A DNA stretch of 64,000 nucleotides from Anaerolineales bacterium (GCA_035341015.1 DAOQUL010000003.1:10350-74349); one strand, 5' to 3'; counted from the stretch's first letter, positions 1 to 44,431 are shown. Translations and numbers: made by a program. Notes: generated from the letters alone by a model not told the origin.

Positions 1-384
1 GGCCGTATCACGGTTGACGACAACCTGGTGCTCTATCTGTTTGGCACGCCTGGACAACGCCGCTTCGACTTCATGTGGGAGATCTTGTCTGAGGGCATGC
101 TGGGCTTTATCGTGATGGTAGACAGCACCCGTCCTGAAACCTTCCGTGAGGCGCGCAATATCCTGGAAACATTCCGTGCATATGCACCAACCCCTTATGT
201 GGTTGTGGCAAACAAGCAAGACTGCAAGGATGCCTGGGACCTGGAAGATATGCGTATTGCGCTGCGCCTGGATGGACGGGTAAAGTTTTTGCCTTGCGTG
301 GCAACGGATAAAGAGTCGGTCAAGAATGCTTTGCTTGAGCTGTTGTACAGTATCCTAGAGGAAATGGAAAAGGGCGAGGGATAA
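1..384 (+). CDS. Small Ras-like GTPase of the CvnD/MglA-like (Roadblock-associated) type; 5' end outside window
   Basis: Frame 1 is open from base 1 (GRITVDDNLVLYLFGTPGQRRF...). G3 motif GTPGQ lies at nt 43-57 and G4 motif NKQD at nt 211-222; the stop is at 382-384. The P-loop would lie upstream of the window. Confidence 0.8.
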   Translation, partial: GRITVDDNLVLYLFGTPGQRRFDFMWEILSEGMLGFIVMVDSTRPETFREARNILETFRAYAPTPYVVVANKQDCKDAWDLEDMRIALRLDGRVKFLPCVATDKESVKNALLELLYSILEEMEKGEG

Positions 385-417
385 ACCACACCCCTTGACC
401 TGGTCTGGTTTGCGGCT

Positions 418-1326
418 GTGTCATCATTCACTACTGATCAGGGCATTGTTCATTACGAAGTCTACGGACGCGGGCGCCCGGTAATTTTGCTGCACGGGTG
501 GCTGGGCTCTTGGGGTTTGTGGCAAGAGACCATGGCCTACCTGGGGCGGTATTACCGTACCTATGCGCTCGATTTTTGGGGTTTTGGCGAATCGGGCACC
601 AAGCGCGATACCTATGCGGTACAAGATTTTGTCAGCCTGGTGGACCAATTCATGGAACAGTTGGGGATCAACCAGGCGCCTTTGGTGGGCCACAGCATGG
701 GGGGCACGGTCAGCCTTTCGGTGGCGATCAAGTATCCGGCGCGGGTGCGCAAGGTGGTGGTGGTGGGCTCGCCGATCGTGGGCAGCTCGCTTTCGCTGCT
801 GCTCAAATTAATGGGACGCCGGCCGATTGCCTTCATCACCTATAATAACATGTGGGCATTTAAGCTGGGCTTCCGCATGATGGCGCCCTTGTTTTCCAGG
901 GATCGTAACTGGGCGAATATGATGGATCGAGACGTATCGAGACTGACCCTCGAATCCTTCTTGATGAGCATTGCCTCGCTGCGGCGGACGGATCTGCGCC
1001 CTCTGTTGGGCCAGGTGAAGATCCCAGCCATGGGTATGTTTGGGCACCGGGATATTGTGGTGCACCCCAACCAGTGGAAGCCGATGTTGGAAGGGATCCC
1101 GCACGCGCGGATCGAACGCTTCCCTGATGCGGGCCACTTCATTATGCTTGATGAGCCGCAGCGCTTCATGGAAACGCTGCGCGATTTCTTAGACAGCCCC
1201 ATTGCGCAGCCGGGCAGCGAACAGCCTGCGGCAACTGGGCGAACAGCCGCCAGCGAGCCCGGCGCGGTTGTACCTGGCTCTGGTTCACCCCCCTCTGTGA
1301 AAAGTTCGACACCCCCGGCAGTATGA
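418..1326 (+). CDS. Alpha/beta-fold hydrolase with intact catalytic triad and a Pro/Ser/Ala-rich C-terminal tail
   Basis: GTG start. HGW motif at aa 26-28; nucleophile elbow GHSMGG with Ser93 at nt 694-696; HRD and AGHF acid/His motifs near the C-terminus. The stop overlaps the next start (ATGA at 1323-1326). Confidence 0.85.
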   Translation: MSSFTTDQGIVHYEVYGRGRPVILLHGWLGSWGLWQETMAYLGRYYRTYALDFWGFGESGTKRDTYAVQDFVSLVDQFMEQLGINQAPLVGHSMGGTVSLSVAIKYPARVRKVVVVGSPIVGSSLSLLLKLMGRRPIAFITYNNMWAFKLGFRMMAPLFSRDRNWANMMDRDVSRLTLESFLMSIASLRRTDLRPLLGQVKIPAMGMFGHRDIVVHPNQWKPMLEGIPHARIERFPDAGHFIMLDEPQRFMETLRDFLDSPIAQPGSEQPAATGRTAASEPGAVVPGSGSPPSVKSSTPPAV

Positions 1327-1955
1327 ATGCGGAAATGAAAGCAGCTTACTACTATCCGAATAAGCTGGGGCGAATCATCCTCCTATCCATGGAGGAGATC
1401 ATCGGCCGCACCGGTGTGAATGCGATCTTGAACCAGGCCAACCTGGCAGAGCTGATCAACCATTACCCGCCCAATGACCTGGATCTGGCGGTGCGTTTTG
1501 AAGATGTGGCCCGGATGCAGGTGGCCTTGGATGCCATTTACGGGCCGCGCGGCGGGCGGGGCCTGGCATTAAGGGCCGGGCGGGCCTGCCTGAAGCACGG
1601 CTTGCGCGAGTTCGGGCCGCTGTTAGGTTTGACTGACCTGGCTTTCCGCCTGCTACCGCTGGAAGAAAAGCTGCGCACCGGTGCGGCGATCTTTGCCGAT
1701 ATCTTTAACCAGTATTCAGACCAAAAGGTGGTGGTTAAAGAAGAAGCAGATAAGATTTTGTGGATCATTGAGCGCTGCCCGGTGTGCTGGCAGCGCAAGG
1801 CCGACAGCCCGGTGTGCCACCTGGCGGTGGGCTTGCTGCAAGAAGCCTTGTATTGGGTCAGCGGCGGCAAGTATTTTGATGTAGAAGAGACCCGCTGTAT
1901 CGCCCAGGGCGACGATGCCTGTGTGATCACGATTGGGAAGCAGGCGTTGGATTAG
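1323..1955 (+). CDS. V4R (4-vinyl-reductase-type) domain protein, a putative small hydrophobic-ligand binder
   Basis: The C-terminal half carries the Cys-rich V4R signature (ERCPVCW...SPVCHLAVGLLQEAL...RCIAQGDDACVI). 210 aa with no TM segment. Confidence 0.7.
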   Translation: MNAEMKAAYYYPNKLGRIILLSMEEIIGRTGVNAILNQANLAELINHYPPNDLDLAVRFEDVARMQVALDAIYGPRGGRGLALRAGRACLKHGLREFGPLLGLTDLAFRLLPLEEKLRTGAAIFADIFNQYSDQKVVVKEEADKILWIIERCPVCWQRKADSPVCHLAVGLLQEALYWVSGGKYFDVEETRCIAQGDDACVITIGKQALD

Positions 1956-1994
1956 CTTGAGTGCGGTAAATCGGATGGTGGTTTTGGGAGCACT

Positions 1995-3272
1995 ATGCTA
2001 AAAATCATTTTACAGGATCCTCGATACCTGACGCCGTTCAACGAGCGAGCCAGGGATATTCGCATCATGAACAAGCCTTTGTGGCTGTCGCAGCGTGATG
2101 TGTTGATGCCCTATACGCATCGCGAGTTAGAGCTGCCGTTTGGGGCCTCGCTGCCGCAGACGAACGAGGAGTGTATCGTTTACCGCGATAACCTGTTTTT
2201 TGACGCGTTCTATATCCAGGCTTTTATCGAGAAAGCCAAGGAAGTGGGCGGGGCCTGCCGGGCAGCTTTTACCACCGATGACCCGTCTTTTCGTGAGCAC
2301 GCCCTGCCGCTTTCGGTCTCGTATACCCCCGAAGGCGAATATTACCTGGCTGACCTGTGGTACTATCCCAATGGGCCAGGCGAGCCAGCCAAAGCGTTGT
2401 GCGTGGATACGCTGCCGATCGAGGCGGGGTATTATCACGTGCCCACCTACATGGCATACGAGCAGGGCGACCTGACCTTTCAGGTGCCTCGCCGCAGCTT
2501 GCTGGCGCTCGATACCTGGGTGCACATCTTCATTGCTGATGTGGTTTACGGTTTATTCGCACGCGGAGCGCGCTTTGAGCACAGGTTAGACAACAACTTG
2601 TTCTTTAAGCTAAGCGTTTTGGCAAGGGCCATGTACGAAGGCAAACAGGTGCTGGATTGCTCGAAGGTGGTGCAGATCGGCAAGAACTGCACGATCGACC
2701 CCAGCGCGGTCATCCACGGACCGACCTCGATCGGGGATAATGTCACGATCGGGGCGGGGGTGGCAATTGAGAACTGCGTGATTGGGGATAACGTGAACGT
2801 GGGGCAGGGCTGCCAGTTGATGCTGTCGGTGGTGGGCGATGGAGCCTTCTTGCCGTTCCGGGCTGCTTTGTTCATGACCACCTTTATGGATAACAGCATG
2901 GTGGCGCAGAACACCTGCCTGCAGATGTGCGTGGTGGGGCGCAACACGTTCATCGGGGCGGGCTCAACCTTTACCGATTACAATCTTCTGCCATCACCCA
3001 TCCGGGCGATGGATGGGCATGGCAAGCTGGGGCATGCCAACCGGCCGGTGCTGGGGGGCTGCGTGGGGCATAACTGTCGCCTGGGGGCAGGCATGATCGT
3101 CTTCCCGGCGCGCACGATCGAGTCGGATGTGGTGGTGTTCGCATCTAAAGAGAGGCGGGTGATTGATAAGGATCTCCATTTTGAGGACAGCGACCATCAT
3201 GGGCTAAAGTTCTCCAAGCTCCATCCCCGGTTATACCCACGGCCAGGTGAAGCGAGCGAGGAGTCCTGGTAG
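1995..3272 (+). CDS. Left-handed beta-helix (hexapeptide-repeat) transferase-like protein with an unassigned 220-aa N-terminal domain
   Basis: Consecutive hexapeptide repeats (IGKNCTIDPSAVIHGPTSIGDNVTIGAGVAIENCVIGDNVNVGQGC...). GGGAG Shine-Dalgarno sequence 5 nt upstream of the ATG. I saw no nucleotidyltransferase GxGxR motif in the N-terminal part. Confidence 0.6.
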   Translation: MLKIILQDPRYLTPFNERARDIRIMNKPLWLSQRDVLMPYTHRELELPFGASLPQTNEECIVYRDNLFFDAFYIQAFIEKAKEVGGACRAAFTTDDPSFREHALPLSVSYTPEGEYYLADLWYYPNGPGEPAKALCVDTLPIEAGYYHVPTYMAYEQGDLTFQVPRRSLLALDTWVHIFIADVVYGLFARGARFEHRLDNNLFFKLSVLARAMYEGKQVLDCSKVVQIGKNCTIDPSAVIHGPTSIGDNVTIGAGVAIENCVIGDNVNVGQGCQLMLSVVGDGAFLPFRAALFMTTFMDNSMVAQNTCLQMCVVGRNTFIGAGSTFTDYNLLPSPIRAMDGHGKLGHANRPVLGGCVGHNCRLGAGMIVFPARTIESDVVVFASKERRVIDKDLHFEDSDHHGLKFSKLHPRLYPRPGEASEESW

Positions 3273-3275
3273 CCT

Positions 3276-4367
3276 GTGGATACCTTTGCGTTCATTATTC
3301 ATCCAATTGATCCCAAGCGTGACATTAGCCGGAAATACCCCTTCTTAGCCCGAATCGTCAACGACTGGATCATTTATGAGGTAGCACCCTTCTTTCCGCC
3401 GGTTTACCTGTCTGAGGTGAATGGGATCACCTCGGCGGCGACCGGGAAGGAGATCAAAGGCTGGTTGATTGCCTGTCCATTGGTACCAAAACACTTTTTT
3501 CGGTTGCCAGAAAAGCGAGTCTATCGTAAGATTATAGAAACTGGTCGTTTAGCTGAGAAACTTGGTGCTAAAATATTAGGGCTAGGAGCATTTACATCGG
3601 TCGTTGGGGATGCGGGCACCACAATTGCAAAGGCGCTGGACATCCCCGTCACAACAGGAGATTCGTACACGGTGGCAGTGGCTGTGCGGGCCATCCGGCA
3701 GGCGGCAGAGATGATGGGCATCCGGCTGGGAAGTGCTACGGCAGCGGTTGTGGGCGCCACGGGTGCGATTGGTAAAGCTTGTTCGGCGTTATTGGCAAAT
3801 GAGGTGGCTGATCTGTATATGGTTGCACGCCACGAATCCGAACTGGCACAATATCGAGAGCAGATGATTGCAGGTGGTGCGAGCGCCAACCTGCATGTTA
3901 GCACGAATATCGATGTGTTGCGAGAGGCGCAGTTGATCTTGACCGTGACAAGTGCCGTACACAGCGTGATCGAGCCAGAGCATTTGCAGCCGGGGAGCGT
4001 GGTTTGTGACGTGGCCCGGCCGCGAGATGTATCGCAGCAGATTGCGGCGGCGCGGGATGACGTGTTGGTGATCGATGGCGGGATGATCGACGTGCCCGGA
4101 GATGTAGATTTCCACTTTAACTTTGGTTTTCCGCCCGGCAAAGCATATGCTTGCATGGCCGAGACGATGGCTCTGACACTGGAGGGCCGCCTGGAGGATT
4201 ACACTTTAGGGAAAGGGATTACACTGGATCGTATTAATGAAATTACAGCCATCGCTGACCGGCATGGCTTTAAGCTCAGCGGCTTTCGCTCTTTTGAGCG
4301 GCCGGTAACTGAGGAACAAATCGAACGTGTGCGCCAGAATGCCAAACAGAGAAGAGGGCATTCTTAA
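3276..4367 (+). CDS. Acyl-ACP reductase (AAR)-like NAD(P)-dependent oxidoreductase
   Basis: Collinear with my recollection of cyanobacterial AAR: FAFIIHP N-terminus, LGLGAFTSVVGD, TTGDSYTVAV, Rossmann motif VVGATGAIGKA, and C-terminal ACMAETMALTLEG...ADRHGF. GTG start 3 nt after the previous stop. Confidence 0.65.
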   Translation: MDTFAFIIHPIDPKRDISRKYPFLARIVNDWIIYEVAPFFPPVYLSEVNGITSAATGKEIKGWLIACPLVPKHFFRLPEKRVYRKIIETGRLAEKLGAKILGLGAFTSVVGDAGTTIAKALDIPVTTGDSYTVAVAVRAIRQAAEMMGIRLGSATAAVVGATGAIGKACSALLANEVADLYMVARHESELAQYREQMIAGGASANLHVSTNIDVLREAQLILTVTSAVHSVIEPEHLQPGSVVCDVARPRDVSQQIAAARDDVLVIDGGMIDVPGDVDFHFNFGFPPGKAYACMAETMALTLEGRLEDYTLGKGITLDRINEITAIADRHGFKLSGFRSFERPVTEEQIERVRQNAKQRRGHS

Positions 4368-4386
4368 TTTTTTATGGGAGGCTGAT

Positions 4387-5274
4387 ATGGGAAAAGCCCG
4401 ACTACTGATTGTAGAAGACGATAGTGACATCTCAAACATGCTGCAAATATACTTCACAGGCCAGGGCTACGAAGTGGATGTGGCACCACGCGGGTCGGCG
4501 GCGTTGGAGAAAACACGCATCAACCTGCCGCACCTGATCGTGTTGGACATCATGCTGCCTGATATCGATGGCTTTGAGGTATGCCGCATCTTGCGGACCA
4601 ACACACGCACCAGCCATGTGCCGATCATCTTCCTGACTCAGAAGGATGAGCGCAGTGATAAGCTGGCGGGCCTGGAGTTGGGGGCAGATGACTACATCAC
4701 CAAGCCCTTCGATATTGAAGAGCTCAAACTGCGTGTGCAGCGTGCCATCTCGCGTGCAGAACAGCAAAGCCTGACAGACCCGCGTTCGGGCCTGCCTGCC
4801 GGCCGCTTGATCGAAGAACAGCTTCGCCGCATCATCCGCCAGCAGAATTGGGCCTTCATGGATGTGCGCGTGAATCACTTCGAGCCGTTCAAAGAAGCTT
4901 ATGGCTTCGTGGCTGGTGATGACGTGCTGCGCTTTGCGGCCATGCTGATCGGCGAGGTGCTGGATACCAAAGGCACCCCCAACGATTTCATTGGCCATGC
5001 CGGCGGTGATAACTTTGTGGTCATCACGGCTGAAGAGACGGCTGCCATGATCTGCGAGACCCTCAAAACCCGCTTTGCAGAAGAGGTCTTGTCGCATTAC
5101 AGTTTCATTGACCGTGAGCAAGGGTTCATTCGCACGGTGAATAAAGAAGGGCAGCCCGAAGAGGCACCTTTGATGAAGCTGGCGATTGGCGTTGTGTCGC
5201 CAAGTGAATACCAGTTTGCAGATATTCGCGAGATCACCGAGCTGGCTGCTGAAGCCCGGCGCAAAGATAGCTAG
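4387..5274 (+). CDS. Response regulator: receiver domain plus degenerate GGDEF-like output domain
   Basis: The REC domain has acceptor Asp54 (IVLDIM, nt 4546-4548). The C-terminal domain follows the GGDEF fold pattern, but the signature reads GGDNF (nt 5002-5016) and the upstream metal-binding DxD position reads VRVNHF. I chose ATG 4387 (MGKARLLIVEDD) over the longer ORF start at 4327. Confidence 0.8.
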   Translation: MGKARLLIVEDDSDISNMLQIYFTGQGYEVDVAPRGSAALEKTRINLPHLIVLDIMLPDIDGFEVCRILRTNTRTSHVPIIFLTQKDERSDKLAGLELGADDYITKPFDIEELKLRVQRAISRAEQQSLTDPRSGLPAGRLIEEQLRRIIRQQNWAFMDVRVNHFEPFKEAYGFVAGDDVLRFAAMLIGEVLDTKGTPNDFIGHAGGDNFVVITAEETAAMICETLKTRFAEEVLSHYSFIDREQGFIRTVNKEGQPEEAPLMKLAIGVVSPSEYQFADIREITELAAEARRKDS

Positions 5275-5315
5275 AGCAGGGTGGGTCTGCTGACGGCCTG
5301 ATTCTCCCTGCCCCT

Positions 5316-8300
5316 ATGGGGTTTGTTTTGCATATGTTTGGCTCGGATTCGCTCACCTTTGGCGTTACAGTGGTTATCCTGGCGTTGGCCTTAGCCGGGG
5401 TGGCTTTGCTGTTCTTGCGCGTGGTGCCGCGAATCCTGGCACTTCAACAGCCTCCATCTTCTTCTCTTCTTACAATTGATATCCCGGCTTCGGATGACGC
5501 CGTGCTGCTGGTCGAAATTGGCGGGCGCGTGCGTTATACCAATCCGGTGGCGCGCGATTGGCTTGGCTATGGCGATGAAGAGCCTAACCTGGAACGCCTG
5601 GCCCGGCGCACTCGACCGAGCGACCTGTTCTTAGGATTGTGCGGTTCTGAGGGGCAGGCGCGCTTTTCGCTTGACGGTCGTTTTGTAGAAGGCACTTCTT
5701 ATTTTGTGCCGCCCAGCAATGGCAAGAGCGGCGCGTACCTGGTGTCGCTGCGCAGGCCGCAGGTGACGGCGATCACCAATGGCGAAGCGGATGCTTCGGA
5801 GCATACCCTGCACATCTTTGCCGAGCTGAGCCAGACGATGGCCTCTAGCCTGGACCTGGAGACCACGCTGTATGCTATTCTGGAGAGCGTGGAACGCCTG
5901 ATCCCATCTGATTTTCCTGAGATCACGGTTTGGGATGCGGCGAAAAAGAATTTACAGCCCTTCCACTTTATTGGTATGCCGGGGGTGGATCGCCGCCTGG
6001 AAGAAACGCAAGAACGTTATGCGCCCGATAAGGGTTATTCGGGCTACCTGGTGACAGAGCGTAAGCCGCTTTTGATCAACGATGTAGATTCCTTCCGTGA
6101 GGTGCGCCCCTCAGTTGTTCGTAAGCAGTATCCCTTCAATTCGTACATGGGTGTGCCGCTGGTAGTAGCCAACGAGCTGGTTGGAACGCTGGAACTGGCC
6201 TCTTTGGGTAAGCAGGCTTTCAACGAGTCAGACCTGGAGGTGCTGCGTGTTTTATCGGGCCAGGCGGCTGTGGCGCTGCATAATGCGATCCTGTTCCAGG
6301 GTGAACAGCGGCGCATCTTAGAGCTTTCGGGCCTGGCGAAGCTGGCGCAGGCCACGGGGCTGGTGCGCGACACCCAAGACTTCTTTGCTCGCCTGATCGA
6401 GGGGATTGAGCCCCTAGTAGACGCCCATACGATCGGCTTTTTGACTTATGACGAGTCAAAACGCCGCCTGCAGGCGCAAGCGCCGTTCAAGGGCATCCCG
6501 GTTGAATTTGTGGCGCTTTACGAGGTGCCCATCCCGCCGGGCAGCCCGGCTGAGGATGTGCTGCTGGCGCAGGAGATGATTGTTGCCCCGCAGGCTACGG
6601 AAGATGAGCGCCTGGTGGCGCTGGACCTGGCGCATCTGGCACAGGCGGCGGGCATCCAAAACACGATCTTGATGCCGCTGACCTCTGTGGGGCGCTTCTT
6701 GGGTTATTTGCAGGTGGCTGATAAGCGCGATGGCCAGCCATTCAACCAGGATGACCTGCGGGTGCTGACGATTGTGGCGGGGCAGGCGGCGACGGTGATT
6801 GAAAATGCCACCCTGGTGCGGCAGTCTCAAGAACGTGCTCAGCGTTCTGAAGCCATGCGCCGGATTGCCTCTTTGACCGGCTCTGTGGCAACGGTGGATG
6901 AGATCTTATCGTTCTCGCTGCGAGAACTGCTCCACCTGCTGCGGGCCGATGCCGGGGCGATCTTCTTGCTGGACGAGAACCGGGCCGAGTTGCGCGTGCA
7001 CAAAGAGTCGCTGCATGGTATTGAGGCTGAGACGGTGGGGCGCATGGGGCGTATTTCGATGAACGACCCCGATTTCCGCCTGACCGTGACCGCCACGCAA
7101 AGGCCTTTCTTCAGCGATGATCTTTCTGAAGAAGCCATGCCCATGCAAACCTATGCCAACATTGCCACGGCCTTCGGGATGAAGTCGGCGATCATTGTGC
7201 CGATCGTGATCCGTGAGCATGGGATTGGCGAATTGATGCTGGGCAGCCGGTCGAAAGATTTCTTTGACCGGAGCGACCTGATCTTGATCTCGACCACTGC
7301 CAGCCAACTGGCAGCGGCGGTTGAGAAATCTACCCTTTATACGCAGACGGACGAGAGCCTGCGCCGCCGGGTGGAGCAGCTTTTGGCCCTGACGCGCGTC
7401 AGCCGGGAGCTGAACACCAACCTGAAGCTTGAATCGCTGCTCCAACTGGTTTACGATGAGCTGCTGCACACCACCCAGGCGGGCTGCGGTACCATTTCAT
7501 TGTTTGAGCTGCAAGACCGCTCGACGGGCAAGCCGCGCCTGCTGCTTTCATTGGGTGATCCGGCAGAGACTGAGCTGAGCCACCTGGAGCAGTTGGTGCT
7601 GACAAAAGAAGAGCCGATCATCGTGGACGATTATGACCATCCAGATGAGGCGCTGGGCAGCGATGTAAAGCCGCCGCATGAAGGGATCCGCTCTTCACTG
7701 GTGGTGCCGATTGCTTACCAGGATGACCTGGCGGGCCTGATCCATTTGCACTCTCGAACGGTTGGGCATTTTGATATGACGGCCCTGGATATCACCCAGG
7801 CCCTGGCTACGCAGGCTTCCATTGCCATTGGCAATGCCATTCGCTTCCAAGAACAGAAGCGGCGCAATGAGCTGTTGAACCAACGCGTTGAAACGATGTC
7901 GAAGCTGGTGGAGGCTTCTCAGGTGCTTTCGCCAGACCAGCCGTTGGAGGATGCCCTGGAGGCGATTGCATACGGCATTCAGGATTCCACGCCCTTTAAT
8001 GTGGTTTTGATCAGCGTGTACAACGCCGAGGGCAATAATTTGATCCGCGTGGCGGGGGCGGGCCTGCCGCTGGCTACCATGGAAGAGTTCCGCAGCCGGC
8101 CCCAGCCCTGGGCCTCGATTAAAGAGATGCTGGACCCGCAGTTCAAGTATGATTACGCCTACTTCATCCCGTTCGAAAAACGCCCGGTGACGCCAACCGA
8201 CCTGCACTCGGTGACGGTTTTGCCGCTGGACGAGAGCAGTGTGAGCAATGAACAGGCCTGGCATCCGAAAGACTTCTTGCTGATCCCGCTCTTTACCAAG

Positions 8301-11300
8301 GGCGAGCGCCCGCTGGGCATGATCAGCGTGGATGCGCCGCGCACCGGGCTGCGCCCCGACCGGCCGACGATTGAGACTCTGGGCGTGTTTGCCAGCCAGG
8401 CGGCGCTGACCATCGAGAGCCACCAAGAGCTGCGCAGGCTGGAAGAACAGGCGCGGGAATTGCAGAATGAGACCGCCCGGGCGCGCCAGGCCCTCGAAGC
8501 CTCGCAAACTTATGTGCCGGTTTTGATGCACAAAGACCTTGAACAGACCATTGCTATCCAGGGATTGAACCAGCGTGGGCGCCGCATCCAGGCGGCTTTG
8601 GATATTGCCGAGCTGATCAACCGCCAGGCAAGCCGCGACGATGTGCTGCTGACGCTGGGACGTGAAGTGTTGACCCGCATGGATTTGGATATGGTGCTGG
8701 TGGGCGAGATCAGCGCGGGCGGGCCGCATTTGCTATACACATTGGGGGCCCTCTCGTCGCCTGGCTTGAACGTTGAGTCGCTGTTGGGCCAGCGCAACCC
8801 GCTGCGATCGGCGTTGCAGGGCGGCGAGATCATCCTGGTTTCTAACGTCGAGGAAAGCGCAGATTGGAAGTCTTCACCGCTCTTGGCTTCGCTGGAGGCC
8901 AAGGCTTTCGTCAGCCTGCCGATCTTGGTGAATGAGCAGGTGGACGCGGCGCTCTTGGGGGTCAGCCGTTCGATGATGAACCCGCCAACCGCCGAAGACC
9001 AGCACCTGTACAACCTGTTATGCCGCCAGGCGGCGATCTCTTTGGAGAATTTACGCCTGCTGACAGAAACCAACCGCCGCTTGCAAGAAGTGAACCTGCT
9101 GTTAGAGTTCAGCCGCCAGCTTGGCACCCTCGATTCGGCCAGTGTGCTGCGCACGCTGGTAGAAAGTGCCCTGCAGGTGGTGCCTAATGCGCACGCCGGC
9201 ATGGTGGCCCTCTGGCAGGCAGAACAAGATGCCTTGGTGGTGCAGGCGGCCTCTGGTTATATTGATAATAACCGTATTCTTGAGATTCCCTATAAGGCCG
9301 GGCAGGCGCTGCCGGGGCAGGCGTTTGAGCGGGGCGAGGCCATGCGGGTGGACGAGGTGGATTTTGCCCGCGATTACAACCTGCCCTCTGAGTATTTGCT
9401 GATCTACCGCGATGCCACCGAGGGCCGCCTGCCGGTTTCGAGCCTGTTGGTGCCCATCCAGACCGGTGATAATAAGCTGGGCGTCTTGGTGCTGGATAAT
9501 TTCAAGGCTTCGTCAGCTTTCACGGTTGAGGACCAGGCTTTGATCGCTTCACTGGCGCGCCAGACGGCCCTGACGCTGGAAAACGTGCGCTTGTACCAGG
9601 CATCAGAACAGCGCGCGGTGCAGCTCTTGGCGCTGACGCAGGTAGCCGGTACGATCACTTCGAGCTTGCAGACCACGGACCTGATCAACTCTTTGCTAGA
9701 CCAGGCCAAGAACATTTTGCCGTACGATACGGGGACGCTCTGGCTGCGCCAGGGCGACAAACTGACCGTGCGCGCGGCGCGCGGCTTTGAAGACAGCGAG
9801 CAGCGCATTGGATTATCGGTGGCGGTGGCTGACAGCTTGCTGTTGAAAGAAATGGTGAACACCAGCCAGCCTCTGTGCGTGGGCGATGTGCGCGAAGACC
9901 CGCGCTTCCCATCCTTGATCGAACACCAGTACCTGTCGTGGTTGGGTGTGCCGTTGATCTCGCAAGGCGAGGTGGTGGGGGTGATTGCGCTGGAAAAGAC
10001 CGAGCCCGATTTCTACGGGCCAGAGCATATTGCCTCGGCGGTGACGTTTGCGGGGCAGGCGGCGGTTGGCCTGGTGAACGCGAACCTGTACGAAGAAAGC
10101 GTGCGGCGGGCGGCCGAATTGGATGAGCGCACCCAACGCTTGAGCCTATTGAACCGCCTGTCGGCAGAGTTGAGCGGTTCGCTGGATGTGGAATATATTG
10201 TGAGCGTGGCAATTGGCGAGCTGGCCCGGGCGGTGCCCTGCACGATGGTGTCGGGCGTGCTCTTCGATACCGATGAACGCGCCATGGTGCTCGCAGAAAC
10301 GCCCCAGGTGGCTGTCAAGTATCCGGTTGCCCTGCCTGAAAATGAAGTATATAGCCGTATTCGCGAATCTTTGGGCGTTTACTCGGTGGAAGATGTGACC
10401 GAGGAAAGCTTGCTGGCTTCGCTCAAGGCATTCTTTAAAAAGCGCTCGACGCGGGCTTTGTTGATCTTGCCGTTGGTGACCGGCAATTACCTGCACGGCA
10501 TGATGTGGATCCAGGCAGATAAGCCTTACCGCTATGATGCGGATGAGGTGGAGACGGCACTGACGATTGCCAACCAGGTGGTGGTGGCGATCCAGAATGC
10601 CCGCCTGTTTGCAGAGACCGAACGCTTGTTCGCCGAGACCCAGCAGCGCAGCGAAGAGCTGGGGACGCTGTTTGACATGGGTGTCAACATTACCCAGGTG
10701 CTCGATCAGCAGAAGTTGATCGATACCACCTTTGAGAATACGATCCGCTTGCTAAAGGCTGATTCAGTGGGCCTGGTGATGACAGGCGATACCGAGAACC
10801 TGGTCATTCGAGCCCTGGATCAGGGCGAAAAAGTTGGCCCAATGGCCATCCCGCGTTCGGGGAACAGCTTCAGCGAATATGTGCTGCAGAACGGCGAGCC
10901 TCTGGTCATCCGCGATATGGATACGGAGCGTGAGACTTTGCCGGTGAAGGGCTATACGATTGGTTCGCCGGTCAAGAGCTGGTTGGGCGTGCCGCTGACG
11001 GTGCGTGGAACAACGAACGGCGTTCTATCGGTGCATGCTTACCATCCTCATGCCTTTGGCGATGCACAGTCGCAGTTGCTCAGCCAGGTGGGTAACCAGT
11101 TGGCTGTGGCGTTGGATAATGCCCGCTTGTTTGAGACGGTGCAGACTTACGCCGCCGACCTGGCCAAGCGCGTTTCTGAACGCACGCAAGAGCTGGAGAT
11201 TGAGCACAACCGCACGCAAACCCTGCTCAACATCATCACCGAGCTCTCTGCCAGCCTGGACCTGGACCTGGTGTTGAATCGCACCCTGGCTGTTTTGAAC

Positions 11301-12881
11301 GAGGCCATCAGCGCAGAGCACAGCCTGATCATGCTGGTGCGTCCGGATGATGAAATGCTGTACCTGCGGGCTTCGCTGGGCTATACGGCCCCGCCGCCCA
11401 AGGGTGGCAAGGCTTCTTCCATCCGGCCGAACGAAGGGTTGGCGGGTTGGGTTTTGGTCAACCGGCAGGCCACGATGGTGCCAGATCTGCTGGAGGATGA
11501 GCGCTGGCTGCATAAATCGGAACAGCCTAACCAGCACCGCAGCGCCCTGGCTGTGCCGTTGATGATGGGTGAAGAAAGCCTGGGCGTGCTGATGCTTTAC
11601 CACCGCCAGCCGAACCGTTTTGACGGCGGGCAGCTTGACCTGGTGACGGCAACCGCCAAGCAGATTGCTGTGGCGATCAATAACGCCCAGTTGTATAACC
11701 TGATCCGCAACCAGGCTGAGCAGTTGGGCGATATGTTGCGCACGCAGCACATTGAGACCAGCCGCTCGCAGGCTATCTTGGAAGCCGTGGCAGATGGTGT
11801 GCTGGTGACGGATGCAAACCGGGAGATCACCCTGTTCAACATCTCGGCTGAGCGCATCTTGGGGTTGGACCGCTTTGATGTGTTGGGCCGCAGTTTGGAG
11901 CATTTCATCGGTTTGTTTGGTAAGGCCGGGCAAACCTGGGTTAAGACCATTCGCACCTGGTCAGATGATCCCATGTCGTACCGCTCGGGCGAGTCTTACG
12001 CAGAGCAGATCGAGCTGGATAACCGCCGGGTCGTGGCGGTGCACCTCTCGCCGGTGCTGTTGCGCAACGACTTCTTGGGGACGGTGTCGATCTTCAGAGA
12101 TATTACCCACATGGTTGAGGTGGACCGCTTGAAGTCGGAATTTGTGGCGACGGTGAGCCATGAGCTGCGCACGCCGATGACCTCGATCAAGGGGTACGTG
12201 GAGATCATGTTGATGGGGGCAGCGGGCAAGCTGAGCGAACAGCAGGAACACTTCTTGCAGGTGGTCAAGTCAAACACCGAGCGCCTGGCGATCCTGGTCA
12301 ACGATCTACTGGATATCTCGCGCATCGAGGCGGGGCGGGTGTCGCTCTCCTTCCAGCCTTTGGACCTGCACAAGATCACCCAGCAAGCGGTTGAGACGAT
12401 CACCCAGCGCATGAAGGACGAGAGCCGCCCGATGAAGGTGGAGACCGACCTGGCGCCCGATCTGCCGGTGGCTTACGGCGACGAGGAACGGGTGCAGCAG
12501 ATCTTAGATAACCTGGTGGAGAACGCGTACCAATACACCCCTGAGGGAGGCCAAATCCTGATCCGGGTGCACCAGGTGGAAAATGATGTTCAGTTTGATG
12601 TGAAGGACAATGGGATTGGTATTTTACCAGAAGACCAGCCGCGGGTGTTTGAGCGCTTCTTCCGCGGGGAGGACCCCCTGGTGCTGGCAACCTCGGGCAC
12701 GGGGTTGGGGCTTTCGATCGTCCAGCACCTGGTTGAGATGCACCGCGGGCGCATCTGGTTTGAGAGTGCGGGTGTGCCGGGGATGGGAACGGTCTTTTCA
12801 TTTGCTATACCGATCTACACTGATGAAGACGCTGTTGAGCCGGTTGATGTACAGGGACGCGACGATGACATCATCCAATAA
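5316..12881 (+). CDS. Giant sensor histidine kinase (2521 aa): TM - PAS-like - 11 tandem GAF - PAS - HisKA - HATPase_c
   Basis: One N-terminal hydrophobic helix (aa 14-36). There are eleven repeats, each ending in a GAF C-terminal helix of the form Q-hydrophobic-A-x-A-hydrophobic-x-N-A-x-L-[FY] (for example QAAVALHNAILFQ, QAATVIENATLV, QLAAAVEKSTLY ... QIAVAINNAQLY), spanning about aa 165-2130 (nt 5808-11705). PAS at about aa 2150-2265. H-box SHELRTP with His2282 at nt 12159-12161. N, G1 and G2 boxes are present (DNLVENAYQYT, DNGIGI, GTGLGLSIV). Confidence 0.9.
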   Translation: MGFVLHMFGSDSLTFGVTVVILALALAGVALLFLRVVPRILALQQPPSSSLLTIDIPASDDAVLLVEIGGRVRYTNPVARDWLGYGDEEPNLERLARRTRPSDLFLGLCGSEGQARFSLDGRFVEGTSYFVPPSNGKSGAYLVSLRRPQVTAITNGEADASEHTLHIFAELSQTMASSLDLETTLYAILESVERLIPSDFPEITVWDAAKKNLQPFHFIGMPGVDRRLEETQERYAPDKGYSGYLVTERKPLLINDVDSFREVRPSVVRKQYPFNSYMGVPLVVANELVGTLELASLGKQAFNESDLEVLRVLSGQAAVALHNAILFQGEQRRILELSGLAKLAQATGLVRDTQDFFARLIEGIEPLVDAHTIGFLTYDESKRRLQAQAPFKGIPVEFVALYEVPIPPGSPAEDVLLAQEMIVAPQATEDERLVALDLAHLAQAAGIQNTILMPLTSVGRFLGYLQVADKRDGQPFNQDDLRVLTIVAGQAATVIENATLVRQSQERAQRSEAMRRIASLTGSVATVDEILSFSLRELLHLLRADAGAIFLLDENRAELRVHKESLHGIEAETVGRMGRISMNDPDFRLTVTATQRPFFSDDLSEEAMPMQTYANIATAFGMKSAIIVPIVIREHGIGELMLGSRSKDFFDRSDLILISTTASQLAAAVEKSTLYTQTDESLRRRVEQLLALTRVSRELNTNLKLESLLQLVYDELLHTTQAGCGTISLFELQDRSTGKPRLLLSLGDPAETELSHLEQLVLTKEEPIIVDDYDHPDEALGSDVKPPHEGIRSSLVVPIAYQDDLAGLIHLHSRTVGHFDMTALDITQALATQASIAIGNAIRFQEQKRRNELLNQRVETMSKLVEASQVLSPDQPLEDALEAIAYGIQDSTPFNVVLISVYNAEGNNLIRVAGAGLPLATMEEFRSRPQPWASIKEMLDPQFKYDYAYFIPFEKRPVTPTDLHSVTVLPLDESSVSNEQAWHPKDFLLIPLFTKGERPLGMISVDAPRTGLRPDRPTIETLGVFASQAALTIESHQELRRLEEQARELQNETARARQALEASQTYVPVLMHKDLEQTIAIQGLNQRGRRIQAALDIAELINRQASRDDVLLTLGREVLTRMDLDMVLVGEISAGGPHLLYTLGALSSPGLNVESLLGQRNPLRSALQGGEIILVSNVEESADWKSSPLLASLEAKAFVSLPILVNEQVDAALLGVSRSMMNPPTAEDQHLYNLLCRQAAISLENLRLLTETNRRLQEVNLLLEFSRQLGTLDSASVLRTLVESALQVVPNAHAGMVALWQAEQDALVVQAASGYIDNNRILEIPYKAGQALPGQAFERGEAMRVDEVDFARDYNLPSEYLLIYRDATEGRLPVSSLLVPIQTGDNKLGVLVLDNFKASSAFTVEDQALIASLARQTALTLENVRLYQASEQRAVQLLALTQVAGTITSSLQTTDLINSLLDQAKNILPYDTGTLWLRQGDKLTVRAARGFEDSEQRIGLSVAVADSLLLKEMVNTSQPLCVGDVREDPRFPSLIEHQYLSWLGVPLISQGEVVGVIALEKTEPDFYGPEHIASAVTFAGQAAVGLVNANLYEESVRRAAELDERTQRLSLLNRLSAELSGSLDVEYIVSVAIGELARAVPCTMVSGVLFDTDERAMVLAETPQVAVKYPVALPENEVYSRIRESLGVYSVEDVTEESLLASLKAFFKKRSTRALLILPLVTGNYLHGMMWIQADKPYRYDADEVETALTIANQVVVAIQNARLFAETERLFAETQQRSEELGTLFDMGVNITQVLDQQKLIDTTFENTIRLLKADSVGLVMTGDTENLVIRALDQGEKVGPMAIPRSGNSFSEYVLQNGEPLVIRDMDTERETLPVKGYTIGSPVKSWLGVPLTVRGTTNGVLSVHAYHPHAFGDAQSQLLSQVGNQLAVALDNARLFETVQTYAADLAKRVSERTQELEIEHNRTQTLLNIITELSASLDLDLVLNRTLAVLNEAISAEHSLIMLVRPDDEMLYLRASLGYTAPPPKGGKASSIRPNEGLAGWVLVNRQATMVPDLLEDERWLHKSEQPNQHRSALAVPLMMGEESLGVLMLYHRQPNRFDGGQLDLVTATAKQIAVAINNAQLYNLIRNQAEQLGDMLRTQHIETSRSQAILEAVADGVLVTDANREITLFNISAERILGLDRFDVLGRSLEHFIGLFGKAGQTWVKTIRTWSDDPMSYRSGESYAEQIELDNRRVVAVHLSPVLLRNDFLGTVSIFRDITHMVEVDRLKSEFVATVSHELRTPMTSIKGYVEIMLMGAAGKLSEQQEHFLQVVKSNTERLAILVNDLLDISRIEAGRVSLSFQPLDLHKITQQAVETITQRMKDESRPMKVETDLAPDLPVAYGDEERVQQILDNLVENAYQYTPEGGQILIRVHQVENDVQFDVKDNGIGILPEDQPRVFERFFRGEDPLVLATSGTGLGLSIVQHLVEMHRGRIWFESAGVPGMGTVFSFAIPIYTDEDAVEPVDVQGRDDDIIQ

Positions 12882-12910
12882 ACACTCACGGCAGGATGGT
12901 AGAGGGAAAA

Positions 12911-13294
12911 ATGGCGAAAATATTGATTGCTGAAGATGAACGCGACATCCGGGATTTGATCACCTTTACGCTGCGTTTTGCGGGCTATGAGGTGGTGCCG
13001 ACGGCGAACGGTGAAGAGGCTTACCTGACGGCCAAGGATATGGAGCAAAAGCCAGACCTGATCATGATGGACGTGCGCATGCCCAGGATGACTGGCTATG
13101 AGGCTTGCAAGGCGATGAAGGCCGAGCCATCGATCGCGGGCATCCCGGTGGTGTTCCTGTCTGCAAAGGGGCAGGAATCAGAGGTCAACACAGGGATGGA
13201 CGTGGGCGCGGATGAGTACATTTTGAAGCCGTTTTCGCCCGATCAATTAATGGATCGGGTGAAGACGATCCTTAAAAAATACGGCAAGGGATAG
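12911..13294 (+). CDS. Stand-alone receiver-domain response regulator
   Basis: MAKILIAEDERD..., acceptor Asp in LIMMDVRMP, KPF motif. GAGGG Shine-Dalgarno sequence just upstream of ATG 12911; the ORF track start at 12896 is less likely. Confidence 0.85.
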   Translation: MAKILIAEDERDIRDLITFTLRFAGYEVVPTANGEEAYLTAKDMEQKPDLIMMDVRMPRMTGYEACKAMKAEPSIAGIPVVFLSAKGQESEVNTGMDVGADEYILKPFSPDQLMDRVKTILKKYGKG

Positions 13295-13304
13295 TGAGTG
13301 GCCA

Positions 13305-14093
13305 ATGAGCATCGTTACACTGGATGGTGAAATAATCCATTATGAGGTGCTGGGGCGGGGCCGGCCGTTGTTCTTTTTGCACGGCTGGGTTGGCTCTTGG
13401 CGCTATTGGATTCCGACCATGCAGGCAGCTTCGATTACCTACCGGGCGTATGCCATCGATATGTGGGGGTTTGGCGATACGGCGAAGCGCGCAGAGCGCT
13501 ATACGCTCGAACAGCAGGTGAAACTGTTAGACAGTTTCATGGAGGCGCTGGGTATTGCGAAGATTGCCATTGTGGGGCACGGGTTGGGGGCGGTTGTGGG
13601 CCTGAACTTTGTGGTCAAGAATCCACAGTTGGTAGATCGGGCGCTGCTGACGGGATTCCCGTTGGGGAATTCGGCGGTGAGTGCGCGCTTGCGATCTGCG
13701 CCATTGCCCGAGCTGGTGGACTGGCTTTTGGGCAAGACGCCGGGCACCGACGCGGCGCGGGCAGAGGCCAATAAGACGGATCCACAGGCGGTGCGCGTGT
13801 CGCTGGATGATATGGACGCGCTCAACCTGCTGGACCAGACGATGCGCATGACTACGCCGTGCTTGTTTGTGCATGGGCAAAACGATCCGGCAGTAGAGGC
13901 GCCGCCGGTGGAGTTGTTGAACACATTGCCAGATAACACACATGAGGTGATCTTTGATGCGACGGGGCATTTCCCGATGCTGGACGATGCGAATAAGTTC
14001 AACCGTTTGCTGGCCGATTTCCTGTCGCTGCCTTCGGGGGTAAGCCCGCGCGACTTGCAGTTGAAGGAAGAGTGGAAGCGGCGGGTGAGGTAA
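13305..14093 (+). CDS. Alpha/beta-hydrolase-fold protein, paralog of 418-1326 with the nucleophile Ser replaced by Gly (probable pseudoenzyme)
   Basis: It aligns residue-for-residue with the first hydrolase (HGW at aa 26-28, GFG at 55-57), but the elbow reads GHGLGA. Gly93 is encoded by ggg at nt 13581-13583. The Asp (QND) and His (TGHF) positions are retained. Confidence 0.8.
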   Translation: MSIVTLDGEIIHYEVLGRGRPLFFLHGWVGSWRYWIPTMQAASITYRAYAIDMWGFGDTAKRAERYTLEQQVKLLDSFMEALGIAKIAIVGHGLGAVVGLNFVVKNPQLVDRALLTGFPLGNSAVSARLRSAPLPELVDWLLGKTPGTDAARAEANKTDPQAVRVSLDDMDALNLLDQTMRMTTPCLFVHGQNDPAVEAPPVELLNTLPDNTHEVIFDATGHFPMLDDANKFNRLLADFLSLPSGVSPRDLQLKEEWKRRVR

Positions 14094-14099
14094 CTATCC

Positions 14100-14128
14100 T
14101 TGACATGCTTACCGGTTGCGCTTATAAT
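14100..14128 (+). promoter_or_regulatory. Consensus sigma70-type promoter for tRNA-Asn
   Basis: TTGACA (14100-14105), a 17-nt spacer, then TATAAT (14123-14128), ending 23 nt upstream of the mature tRNA 5' end. Confidence 0.65.
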
Positions 14129-14151: not shown

Positions 14152-14225
14152 TCCTCGATAGCTCAATTCGGCAGAGCGGGCGGCTGTTAACCGCTAGGTT
14201 CTAGGTTCGAGTCCTAGTCGAGGAG
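14152..14225 (+). tRNA. tRNA-Asn (anticodon GTT)
   Basis: Hand-folded cloverleaf: acceptor TCCTCGA/TCGAGGA, D stem GCTC/GAGC, anticodon stem GGCGG/CCGCT with loop CTGTTAA, T arm CTAGG-TTCGAGT-CCTAG, discriminator G. CCA is not encoded. Confidence 0.9.
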
Positions 14226-14250
14226 CCTGAGTACCTTAGTACATTAACAA

Positions 14251-14289
14251 CTCTCCACCTGATATCGGGTGGAGAGTTGTGTTTTCTCT
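14251..14289 (+). terminator. Rho-independent terminator after tRNA-Asn
   Basis: 9-bp stem CTCTCCACC / GGTGGAGAG (14251-14259 and 14268-14276) followed by a T-rich tract, ttgtgttttctct. Confidence 0.6.
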
Positions 14290-26517: not shown

Positions 26518-26569
26518 TCTTTCTCCGTTCTACGCGGCGGGAGAAACCCCGCCTCTCTTAAAAATAAGG

Positions 26570-26663
26570 CGGGAGTGGATGGGGGTCGAACCCACCGCGG
26601 CCCGCAACGCGACCCGCCACCGGTTTTGAAGACCGGGGAGCCCACCGGGACTCAACCACTCCC
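26570..26663 (-). tRNA. selC: tRNA-Sec (selenocysteine, anticodon TCA)
   Basis: The hand-folded structure shows these features:
- An 8-bp acceptor stem GGGAGTGG/CCACTCCC.
- A 6-bp D stem GAGTCC/GGGCTC with a 4-nt loop.
- An anticodon arm CCGGT-CTTCAAA-ACCGG.
- A long variable arm (about 24 nt).
- A 5-bp T stem GTGGG/CCCAT with a TTCGACC loop.
It is 94 nt long and collinear with E. coli selC as I recall it. Confidence 0.85.

Positions 26664-44419: not shown

Positions 44420-44431
<12 letters not shown>

Follow-up and report, generated by a model that had tools for sequence, protein, structure and literature searches.

At the start of a 64,000-nucleotide stretch of DNA from an Anaerolineales bacterium (GCA_035341015.1, DAOQUL010000003.1:10350-74349; hereafter the window, meaning the whole stretch) we found a compact gene cluster in which a small GTPase of the MglA family is encoded together with a giant GAF histidine kinase, two receiver (REC) proteins and a set of enzyme-like proteins. 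The complete cluster has ten genes in the order PATAN-winged helix-turn-helix (PATAN-wHTH), GTPase, alpha/beta hydrolase 1 (ABH1), V4R, LbH (left-handed beta-helix), AAR-like (related to acyl-ACP reductase), REC with a degenerate GGDEF domain, GAF kinase, REC and alpha/beta hydrolase 2 (ABH2). The same order in 80 species-level genomes with differing flanks is an arrangement far beyond chance. We put forward, tentatively and as a reading that is quite possible and still open to doubt, that this putative operon is a G-protein-coupled two-component system with pseudoenzyme adaptors, which would read or control an envelope lipid or sugar metabolite.

Gene content of the cluster

Genes were called as open reading frames (ORFs) on the window, and families were assigned by Pfam, NCBIfam and PDB searches. 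Nine tightly packed plus-strand protein genes were obtained in positions 1-14093, followed by a tRNA gene:

1..384, plus strand: GTPase, the last 127 aa of an MglA-family protein of 187 aa, the gene of which starts beyond the window edge
418..1326, plus strand: ABH1, 302 aa (Abhydrolase_1, E 2e-32)
1323..1955, plus strand: V4R protein, 210 aa (PF02830)
1995..3272, plus strand: LbH protein, 425 aa (Hexapep and LbH_EIF2B Pfam matches)
3276..4367, plus strand: AAR-like oxidoreductase, 363 aa (homology to AAR and to the PigE N-domain)
4387..5274, plus strand: response regulator with REC and degenerate GGDEF domains (alternative GTG start at 4327)
5316..12881, plus strand: multi-GAF histidine kinase, 2521 aa (GAF_2, PAS, HisKA, HATPase_c)
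12896..13294, plus strand: single-domain CheY-like REC protein, 132 aa (Response_reg, E 4.6e-28)
13305..14093, plus strand: ABH2, 262 aa (Abhydrolase_1, E 1.8e-18)
14152..14227, plus strand: tRNA-Asn, the downstream border of the cluster

The spacers, in gene order, measure 33, -4 (an ATGA overlap at 1323-1326), 39, 3, 19, 41, 14 and 10 nt, with ABH1 translationally coupled to V4R and LbH to AAR-like; genes so close together (0-41 nt, with overlaps) point to co-transcription. A preliminary description of this DNA had counted ten plus-strand genes. The tight co-directional set stands, with nine genes in the window and the tenth (PATAN) just past its edge, and the junctions it listed (the ATGA overlap, 3272/3276 and 13294/13305) were exact; the families that it had proposed for the GTPase, V4R, LbH, AAR-like, hydrolase and kinase genes were borne out by the Pfam, NCBIfam and PDB searches. 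A consensus scan of this region found no strong terminator or promoter between the nine genes and, in agreement with the single unit that had been described, none of any strength separating the enzymes from the kinase. Just 3' of the ABH2 stop codon there is a perfect 12/12 sigma-70 promoter by the same kind of scan (TTGACA-17-TATAAT, 14100-14128), and a terminator with a 15-bp stem (14247-14280) comes directly after tRNA-Asn. Because it has its own promoter and terminator, the tRNA-Asn is a separate unit that marks the end of the cluster, and because the operon is without a terminator of its own, read-through from it would stop at 14247-14280. An Rfam search of the window returned tRNA only, with no riboswitch or other RNA element.

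Conservation across the order

The LbH protein was scanned against one genome per GTDB species, which yielded 80 loci at 58-98% identity. Synteny was then scored by tblastn and blastp of all cluster proteins, counts being taken only over loci with enough flanking sequence. PATAN was present in 60/61 loci, the GTPase in 72/72, ABH1 in 72/74, V4R in 55/77 (absent in 22/77), the AAR-like gene in 44/73 (absent in 29/73), the REC-GGDEF-like gene in 66/71 and the kinase in 60/67, while ABH2 followed REC in 19/19 and was always the last cluster gene. Gene order is kept while LbH identity drops to 58%, and the genes on either side vary from locus to locus while the cluster recurs; because the flanks differ, selection on the cluster itself is indicated. 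The preliminary description had proposed gene-neighbourhood conservation as a check, and the genes are indeed syntenic in related genomes, across 80 species. In its inheritance the cluster resembles a core locus that is passed on vertically.

There are departures from the common arrangement. V4R and the AAR-like gene are both missing in 12/71 loci, in which the rest of the operon persists. In L038 the block of REC-GGDEF and kinase genes is inverted and lies a few kb upstream; the two-component block is absent from L069 and L070, both at 58% identity, where PATAN, GTPase, a V4R-like gene, LbH and ABH2 are present; and L030 and L076 have no kinase, yet retain receiver(s) and ABH2. We also considered a role in anti-phage defence and rejected it, since PADLOC gave only weak, generic wHTH/REC matches (E 1e-4 to 8e-6).

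The LbH protein as a hub

Across the order LbH and ABH1 are conserved to a similar degree, at roughly 70% identity each, and the AAR-like protein is less conserved than LbH. The first 220 aa of LbH have no Pfam family match; the N-terminus of the window protein reads MLKIILQDPRYLTPFNERARD. A first structural model, built on a shallow alignment of close homologues, reached a pLDDT of 66.8, and its N-domain matched nucleotidyltransferases. A second model (AF2), built on a diverse alignment, reached pLDDT 92.8 and pTM 0.91 and has the two-domain fold of GlmU and ST0452, in which the N-domain is nucleotidyltransferase-like and is followed by a helical arm and a left-handed beta-helix. The best full-length Foldseek match was ST0452, an archaeal enzyme with both sugar-1-phosphate nucleotidyltransferase and acetyltransferase functions (E 5.8e-14, TM 0.54-0.61). 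Next came a chain of 406 residues from the human GMPPA/GMPPB complex (E 1.6e-10), whose length suggests that it is GMPPA, the non-catalytic regulator, and then by GlmU (E about 7e-10) and VTC1. A family profile searched against the PDB again retrieved ST0452 (E 1.2e-17), the LbH domain being likest those of amino-sugar-1-phosphate acetyltransferases (ST0452, GlmU).

The catalytic signatures of such enzymes were sought in the family. The protein starts with MLKIILQDPRYLTPFNE in the window and with MKAYI...EPFGD in distant members, and the G-x-G-x-R(L) nucleoside triphosphate (NTP) loop, together with the PK lysine that follows it, is missing family-wide, down to 21% identity; in the profile alignment the AAGSGER of ST0452 falls partly in a gap, and this stretch is weak taken alone (i-Evalue 2.1). 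The His in the ST0452 segment IPHLSYVGD, which we take to be the catalytic base of that enzyme, is an insertion relative to the LbH family in one profile alignment. D328 of LbH is invariant. The protein is thus probably non-canonical or non-catalytic. The preliminary description had called it transferase-like and had overlooked both this and the hub role set out below.

All 75 loci with a complete LbH ORF encode a C-terminal extension, E(D/E)SDHH..LHPRLYPRPGE....W, which ends in an invariant terminal Trp (residues about 386-425, window 3150..3272) and is kept whichever accessory genes are present. It is retained in the 41-50% identical relatives P0122 and P0125 and absent in more distant members. 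We had considered it as a disordered docking motif and withdrew this proposal, because residues to about 421 have pLDDT 80-91 in the second model; the motif is conserved but probably folded.

A protein-homologue search gave only relatives of at least 73% identity, and the more distant context comes from a representative search and contig look-ups. When 1.84 billion cluster representatives were searched with LbH, 59 clusters were found at E <=1e-30 and 330 at <=1e-10, with full-length family members down to about 23% identity. The neighbourhoods of distant representatives, with identities to LbH from BLASTP or phmmer, were:

P0122 (48-50%): PATAN, GTPase, ABH, LbH, AAR-like
P0124 (46%): V4R, LbH, REC-GGDEF, one unknown gene, 3011-aa GAF kinase
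P0128 (43%): V4R, LbH, REC-GGDEF
P0125 (41-42%): LbH, AAR-like, REC-GGDEF, 2988-aa GAF kinase; no adjoining GTPase
P0141 and P0134 (34-38%): adjoining squalene-hopene-cyclase-like, radical-SAM, SDR and cupin genes
P0152 (32%): Epimerase/NAD_binding_4-type reductase, LbH, HisKA_7TM kinase, REC
P0178 and P0186 (27-28%): within clusters of GT2, Phosphodiest, TMEM260, DegT and LPG-synthase genes
P0184 (26%): LbH, PlsC acyltransferase

In the 41-46% relatives, LbH thus stands with V4R and/or AAR-like, the REC-degenerate-GGDEF gene and, where the contig reaches, the GAF kinase, with no adjacent PATAN-GTPase pair. The 46% lineage also has, 3.7 kb upstream of its V4R, LbH, REC-GGDEF and GAF-kinase operon, a divergent operon (L088/L089, 1..4337, minus strand). 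It encodes a canonical Ras/Rab-like GTPase (DxxGQ, NKRD), a pair of unknown proteins (315 and 425 aa) whose N-termini resemble each other, Roadblock and a V4R-containing protein of 506 aa. LbH is therefore an evolutionary hub around which V4R, reductases, REC-GGDEF-like proteins, kinases and small-GTPase modules gather repeatedly in various arrangements, and because the same families re-associate around distant LbH genes, functional coupling is better supported than it would be if synteny were confined to a single order. At greater distances the background of the family lies in the metabolism of envelope glycans or lipids.

The GTPase and its PATAN neighbour

The GTPase has Pfam matches to ATP_bind_1, Ras and Arf, and its best PDB match is MglA (3t12, E 2.8e-8). 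The motifs conserved in 76 orthologues are G1 GPFxSGKT, G3 GTPGQ (FGTPGQ) and G4 NKQD; in the protein itself, GPFNSGKT is followed by about 29 residues before the switch-I segment TTVAMDFG. A single G domain in the 150-240-aa range, the P-loop, the G1-G2 insertion and a G3 without the Ras Asp are all features of the MglA family. In the Group 2 MglA GTPases of the actinobacterial conservon G4 reads NxFD and G5 reads DAR (PMC4316618), whereas G4 is NKQD here, so the GTPase is distinct from that group: of the CvnD/MglA-like identity proposed in the preliminary description, the MglA part stands and the conservon type does not. Its taxon and PATAN context tentatively suggest membership in Group 5 of the same classification (PMC4316618). 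No MglB/Roadblock gene occurs within four genes of the GTPase in L001 (below) or in most loci, and by the criterion of MglB coupling it is an orphan.

As a proxy for the sequence beyond the window edge we used a 98%-identical locus, L001, in which the full GTPase of 187 aa (7798..8361) is 99% identical to the window copy. Directly abutting it, a 278-aa protein (L001 6961..7797, outside the window) matches PF14332, DUF4388/PATAN (6961-7794, E 3.7e-26, 92 bits against a cut-off of 25); PF14332 was matched also in L069 and in L087, where it is listed as PatA_N. Its C-terminal 129 aa gave only weak wHTH matches, and DUF742 was not detected in this part even at E values up to 10. Neither the window (tblastn) nor the 8 kb upstream in L001 contains a Roadblock homologue. 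Thus the Roadblock/LC7 and DUF742 partners that had been expected upstream did not materialize, and PATAN/DUF4388 takes that position in L001 instead. PATAN genes are known as neighbours of MglA-family GTPases, in an occasional and variable neighbourhood (PMC4316618), and in cyanobacteria PATAN is a protein-binding output domain (bioRxiv 10.1101/2021.06.11.447907).

A promoter match of 11/12 (TTGACG-17-TATAAT, L001 6834-6862) precedes the PATAN gene, and a divergent thiamine pyrophosphokinase gene borders the operon upstream. The L001 leader gave a sub-threshold thiamine pyrophosphate (TPP) riboswitch match (RF00059, 6700..6767, minus strand, 27 bits, E 0.0023), cut by the end of the searched stretch. 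This match belongs to the divergent thiamine gene and not to the operon, and the 289-aa ORF call for the pyrophosphokinase is probably over-extended into the riboswitch leader. As this was the only RNA match in the leader, a riboswitch or other RNA element for the cluster was rejected.

In a clade of nine species (L041, L043, L044, L050, L052, L054, L058, L059 and L060; for example L052 4338..7055) four further genes stand directly upstream of PATAN: a Roadblock protein (PF03259, E 5.8e-18, five genes upstream of the GTPase), a V4R paralogue, a paralogue of the REC-degenerate-GGDEF protein and GT2, a glycosyltransferase like polyprenol-phosphate-sugar synthases. This block has the appearance of a mini-module that was duplicated and provides the MglB-type protein otherwise missing.

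The hydrolases and the two-component proteins

ABH1 and ABH2 are paralogues, 34% identical over 262 aa, that differ in the nucleophile elbow, GHSMG(G) in ABH1 and GHGLG(A) in ABH2. The ABH1 triad is retained among the orthologues (GHSMG in 76/76, Asp in 76/76 and His in 75/76), and the protein is probably catalytically competent. In ABH2 a Gly replaces the nucleophile Ser in 23/23 orthologues, with the Asp kept and the His present in 19/23, which marks it as a predicted, conserved pseudo-hydrolase. One intact and one nucleophile-dead copy is what the preliminary description had reported, and the orthologues uphold it. Its comparison with RsbQ-RsbP, KAI2 and D14 fared differently, since there is no specific similarity to these hydrolases and the likeness is one of analogy only: RsbQ, KAI2 and D14 are absent from the best 60 PDB matches of ABH1 and ABH2, which are epoxide hydrolases, arylesterases, MCP hydrolases and dehalogenases, and the neighbours of ABH1 are likewise generic (epoxide hydrolase, arylesterase, MCP hydrolase).

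The kinase has GAF_2 in 10 stretches (E 1.5e-135), a PAS domain at residues 2150-2264, HisKA at 2273-2340 and HATPase_c at 2388-2500, with an N-terminal hydrophobic segment, as read from the sequence, and a C-terminus (...VQGRDDDIIQ) without LPxR; kinases of 2988 and 3011 aa occupy the same position in distant loci. In the REC-only protein the acceptor region is conserved. The other receiver matches Response_reg (E 2.9e-28) and GGDEF (E 9e-10), the GGDEF motif reading GGDNF in the window protein, with no RxxD I-site (the position reads TPND). Among the 12 commonest variants, which account for 51/68 orthologues and include GGDNF, GDENF, GGSNF, GSDNF and GGDSF, none has the catalytic Glu in fourth position, whereas the phospho-acceptor Asp segment LDIMLPD is present in 67/68. 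By its motifs this protein should not be a diguanylate cyclase. Its gene also adjoins LbH in the distant loci L084, L086 and L088. A 2521-aa kinase with two receivers had been described before; the kinase and the REC-only protein agree with that, and the first receiver is more precisely a REC domain joined to a degenerate GGDEF.

The V4R and AAR-like accessory proteins

The V4R protein scores 45.3 bits against the PF02830 cut-off of 31, over a model that covers only its C-terminal 57 aa, and has a conserved CxxC plus one further Cys; MJ1460 and MopR are weak PDB matches. V4R is a prokaryotic relative of TRAPPC3 that binds hydrophobic ligands (PMC2253512, PMC10933270). In about 17 loci the gene is cleanly deleted, with remaining gaps of <60 nt, and in others its slot holds a degenerate ORF without the Cys residues (L039 9316..9828, 170 aa; L069 9422..9976, 184 aa; also L070). 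The L039 and L069 ORFs have no Pfam match, yet they retain the V4R segment ...L(Y/F)W(A/L)S(G/N)G... and look like decaying or repurposed V4R genes.

The AAR-like protein was compared with NCBIfam, in which it matches the PigE N-terminal domain (E 4.8e-63) and TIGR04058 (E 5e-36), both under the cut-off; the TIGR04058 score is 124.6 bits against an equivalog cut-off of 449.7, and by this measure the protein is a homologue, and not an equivalog, of long-chain acyl-ACP reductase. PDB matches were 4ppm (PigE, E 1.7e-36) and 6jzq (cyanobacterial AAR, E 2e-26). The segment CMAET, which aligns with CMAET of PigE and whose Cys is presumably the AAR catalytic Cys, and the NAD(P) motif GATGAIG are conserved in 43 orthologues. 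None of the profile searches placed V4R, AAR-like or LbH in a housekeeping family, all NCBIfam equivalog matches being far under their cut-offs. The profile searches thus agree with the preliminary description, for which an assignment of these three proteins to unrelated housekeeping families would have been damaging.

Other features of the window

A tRNA-Sec gene (anticodon TCA) lies at 26568..26663 on the minus strand, so the organism uses selenocysteine; no sel genes were found among the window ORFs scanned, and the neighbours of the tRNA encode an M50 peptidase, a DHH protein, a SAM hydroxide adenosyltransferase-like protein and a glutamine synthetase. The remaining observations concern individual genes:

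14279..14701, plus strand: 140-aa cadherin/Big_9-domain fragment
17083..20754, minus strand: 1223-aa secreted repeat protein, with beta-helix-like, PKD-like and carboxypeptidase-regulatory-like repeats as judged by eye
36707..38959, minus strand: 749-aa Ser/Thr protein kinase, unrelated to the cluster
44420..47353, minus strand: 976-aa STAND-type protein with a guanylate-cyclase-like N-terminus, NB-ARC and TPR/MalT-like repeats, unrelated to the cluster

The first two are cell-surface proteins and are not conserved beside the cluster in other species.

Comparison with known systems

The literature searched holds no description of the cluster; it can be traced only in a gene list appended to work on Anaerolinea thermolimosa, as unannotated neighbours (PMC8756737), and the earlier statement that no described pathway has this combination still applies. 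In its logic, the closest described system appears to be the actinobacterial conservon/AGPS. There a histidine kinase (CvnA) is coupled to a GTPase (CvnD) through adaptors (Roadblock, DUF742), with optional accessory sensors, the P450 CvnE or the GAF protein CvnF, that act on the kinase (PMC13343842, PMC13621833). Both are operons that link a sensor histidine kinase, an MglA-family GTPase and non-DNA-binding adaptors, with optional accessory enzyme-fold or GAF sensor proteins and GAF as cytoplasmic input. However, the Roadblock protein CvnB and CvnC, a DUF742 guanine nucleotide exchange factor (GEF), have no match in this operon, where the partner of the GTPase is PATAN-wHTH. CvnA is a TM-NIT/HAMP-HATPase protein with an LPxR tail, whereas this kinase is of the HisKA/HATPase type with about 10 in-chain GAF domains and would have two REC substrates of its own. 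Finally, the conservon belongs to Actinomycetota and this cluster to Chloroflexota, and only the latter has the accessory combination of LbH, V4R, AAR-like and two hydrolases. Strict conservon membership was accordingly rejected on four features: Roadblock, DUF742, the GTPase group and a CvnA-type kinase.

The cluster also resembles the MglA/PATAN groups (Groups 1 and 5, PMC4316618) in having a 187-aa Ras-like GTPase with an extended G1-G2 region, a non-Asp G3 and an adjacent PATAN gene; those neighbourhoods are variable and occasional, whereas here a ten-gene operon is fixed across an order. With the Myxococcus MglA/MglB/RomR/Frz circuit it shares REC proteins and a kinase as upstream input, but here there is mostly no adjacent MglB, there are no motility genes and enzyme-fold proteins are integral.

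LbH has the same two-domain fold as GMPPA-GMPPB and eIF2B gamma/epsilon, and its Gly loop is lost as in the regulatory paralogues. ST0452 and GlmU are the catalytic prototypes of this fold. Sequence identity is nonetheless only 9-15%, and LbH has no catalytic partner paralogue nearby, has its own Trp-ending C-terminal extension and is linked to REC proteins, kinases and GTPases and not to sugar-nucleotide enzymes. The hydrolases recall RsbQ-RsbP, KAI2/D14 and GID1 in that a hydrolase-fold protein is encoded beside a signalling partner on which it presumably acts, and that one copy is non-catalytic; ABH2, however, is without the nucleophile on which RsbQ, KAI2 and D14 depend. A receptor that does not hydrolyse has a precedent in GID1.

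The AAR-like protein is homologous over its full length to cyanobacterial AAR and to the PigE N-domain, with CMAET and the Rossmann motif conserved, but, in contrast to the AAR and PigE systems, the cluster has no aldehyde-deformylating oxygenase or aminotransferase partner. V4R resembles TRAPPC3 (Bet3) in its Cys cluster and in its association with a small GTPase and, in some relatives, with Roadblock, which echoes TRAPP/Ragulator folds; unlike TRAPPC3 it is a stand-alone bacterial protein of 210 aa and is dispensable, as its absence from 22/77 loci indicates. To our knowledge, GEF activity is not described for any prokaryotic V4R protein.

Interpretation

Gene content, order, conservation, motif status and fold are observed; from here on we infer co-transcription, binding partners, the direction of the signal and the nature of the ligand. 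In the proposed G-protein-coupled two-component system, the kinase would be tethered to the membrane, integrate cytoplasmic cues through its approximately 10 GAF domains and phosphorylate both receivers. The REC-only and REC-degenerate-GGDEF proteins would act through protein-protein contact, since neither has a DNA-binding or catalytic output. PATAN would be the dedicated partner of the GTPase, because the two genes abut and are paired in 60/61 loci, and together with the REC proteins it would determine which nucleotide state the GTPase is in or where it is located. As the hub that links both halves, LbH could be a ligand-binding or adaptor subunit comparable to GMPPA for GMPPB, and ABH2 a second adaptor or receptor. 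ABH1, the AAR-like enzyme where present and the V4R carrier may process or present a hydrophobic envelope metabolite of acyl or glycolipid type, the level of which the system would read or regulate.

Several considerations weigh against this proposal. The status of the ten genes as one operon is deduced from spacing and consensus scans, and all 80 loci are metagenome-assembled genomes of Anaerolineales/Chloroflexota. The modules are separable, as in L069/L070, L084 and L086, and their coupling may thus be looser than that of a single machine. The presumed loss of the LbH acetyltransferase base draws on one profile alignment and on taking the ST0452 His as catalytic; LbH could be an enzyme with non-canonical chemistry, given the invariant D328 and the distant relatives in glycan and lipid clusters. 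Lastly, the direction of information flow is a guess.

According to the preliminary description, ABH1, LbH and the AAR-like enzyme make or trim an acyl- or aldehyde-type signal that is read by V4R, ABH2 or the GAF domains, with the GTPase downstream. Much of the cluster is consistent with this: both the Cys and the NAD(P) motif are retained in the AAR-like protein, 75/76 ABH1 orthologues have an intact triad, the V4R and TRAPPC3 folds bind hydrophobic ligands (PMC10933270), the ABH1/V4R and LbH/AAR-like pairs are translationally coupled and, as circumstantial support, LbH relatives adjoin acyl reductase-type, PlsC, terpene-cyclase-like and glycosyltransferase genes. The general logic of a small molecule, sensors and a GTPase switch is plausible. 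However, V4R is absent in 22/77 loci, AAR-like in 29/73 and both in 12/71, with the operon otherwise intact, and because the rest persists without them these two cannot be the obligatory maker and reader of a signal. Moreover, the cluster contains no gene for an acyl carrier or a ligase and none with an obvious part in substrate supply, the N-domain of LbH is without the NTP loop and the hydrolases lack specific similarity to RsbQ, KAI2 or D14, so that we consider this model unlikely, although it deserves to be kept in mind. A reversed arrangement, in which the GTPase and the two-component proteins regulate an envelope glycolipid or glycan pathway of ABH1, LbH and AAR-like, LbH being a genuine acyltransferase, seems to us distinctly improbable. 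The nucleotidyltransferase signature is lost across the LbH family, the IPHLSYVGD His has no counterpart in its profile, the cluster includes no membrane or export components and the high conservation of LbH, similar to that of ABH1 and above that of AAR-like, suits an interaction hub at least equally. What speaks for it is that the LbH domain is nearest to the acetyltransferase domains of ST0452 (E 1.2e-17) and GlmU, that the 26-28% relatives lie among GT2, Phosphodiest, TMEM260, DegT, LPG_synthase and PlsC genes, that GT2 stands directly upstream of PATAN in nine species and that MfpB, a conservon GTPase of mycobacteria, has as its effector MfpA, a protein that it binds and whose gene adjoins its own (PMC4316618).

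The GTPase has its best PDB match in MglA, PATAN regulators of cyanobacteria bind PilB and PilC, the pilus motor being a target in Synechocystis (bioRxiv 10.1101/2021.06.11.447907), MglA/MglB genes are neighbours of PATAN genes (PMC4316618) and single-domain REC proteins are typical of polarity circuits such as that of Myxococcus MglA, MglB, RomR and Frz; it might thus be supposed that PATAN-GTPase and REC control a type IV pilus or the pole or septum in filaments, with the enzymes as passengers. We hold this to be highly doubtful. The operon and the sampled parts of the 64-kb window contain no pilus, motor or cytoskeletal gene, MglB/Roadblock is missing beside the GTPase in most species and conservation of the enzyme-like genes is no less strict than that of the GTPase, which argues against passengers. 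It could also be that two or three functionally unrelated units, namely the PATAN-GTPase pair, the enzymes and the two-component proteins, are adjacent only through shared ancestry in one order, as the modules are found apart in some genomes and part of the synteny in 80 loci of a single order could be inertia. Against this, the cluster is conserved and its flanking genes are not, gene order is intact at 58% LbH identity, the same families re-associate differently in L038, L088 and L091 and spacing is 0-41 nt with overlaps; unrelated units are scarcely credible to us, and chance adjacency is very unlikely. A more speculative extension of the proposed two-component system, for which the prospects appear slim, is that V4R, a non-catalytic LbH, PATAN and, in some species, Roadblock form a phosphorylation-controlled, metabolite-gated platform of GEF or GTPase-activating protein (GAP) type for the MglA-family GTPase, with the kinase and receivers as input and a lipid ligand (ABH1/AAR-like/V4R) as gate. 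It draws by analogy on the folds of eukaryotic GTPase regulators, TRAPPC3/Bet3 for V4R and eIF2B gamma/epsilon with GMPPA for LbH. If true, it would define a new class of G-protein-coupled two-component systems outside Actinomycetota, with a pseudo-GlmU as GTPase regulator.

Significance

Small Ras-like GTPases of bacteria are understood in two settings only, Myxococcus polarity and the actinobacterial conservon, and the operon described here offers a third. The cluster is an undescribed relative of the bacterial modules in which a small GTPase is coupled to a histidine kinase. It adds a hub family that is uncharacterised, and it combines an unusually dense set of apparent pseudoenzymes in signalling: a dead hydrolase, a degenerate GGDEF and a pseudo-nucleotidyltransferase. 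Anaerolineales are common in digesters, sediments and activated sludge. The order is abundant and poorly studied, essentially every sampled member has the cluster and cultured carriers exist, such as Anaerolinea thermolimosa (genes GAP05454-GAP05458 and onward) or A. thermophila. If the proposed G-protein-coupled two-component system is correct, it would show a GTPase switch wired to a canonical phosphorelay and would give stand-alone PATAN proteins a testable role where the locus carries no motility genes. The LbH family, with its 330 clusters at <=1e-10, might then be a new metabolite-sensing accessory subunit, since it is found repeatedly beside kinases and receivers.

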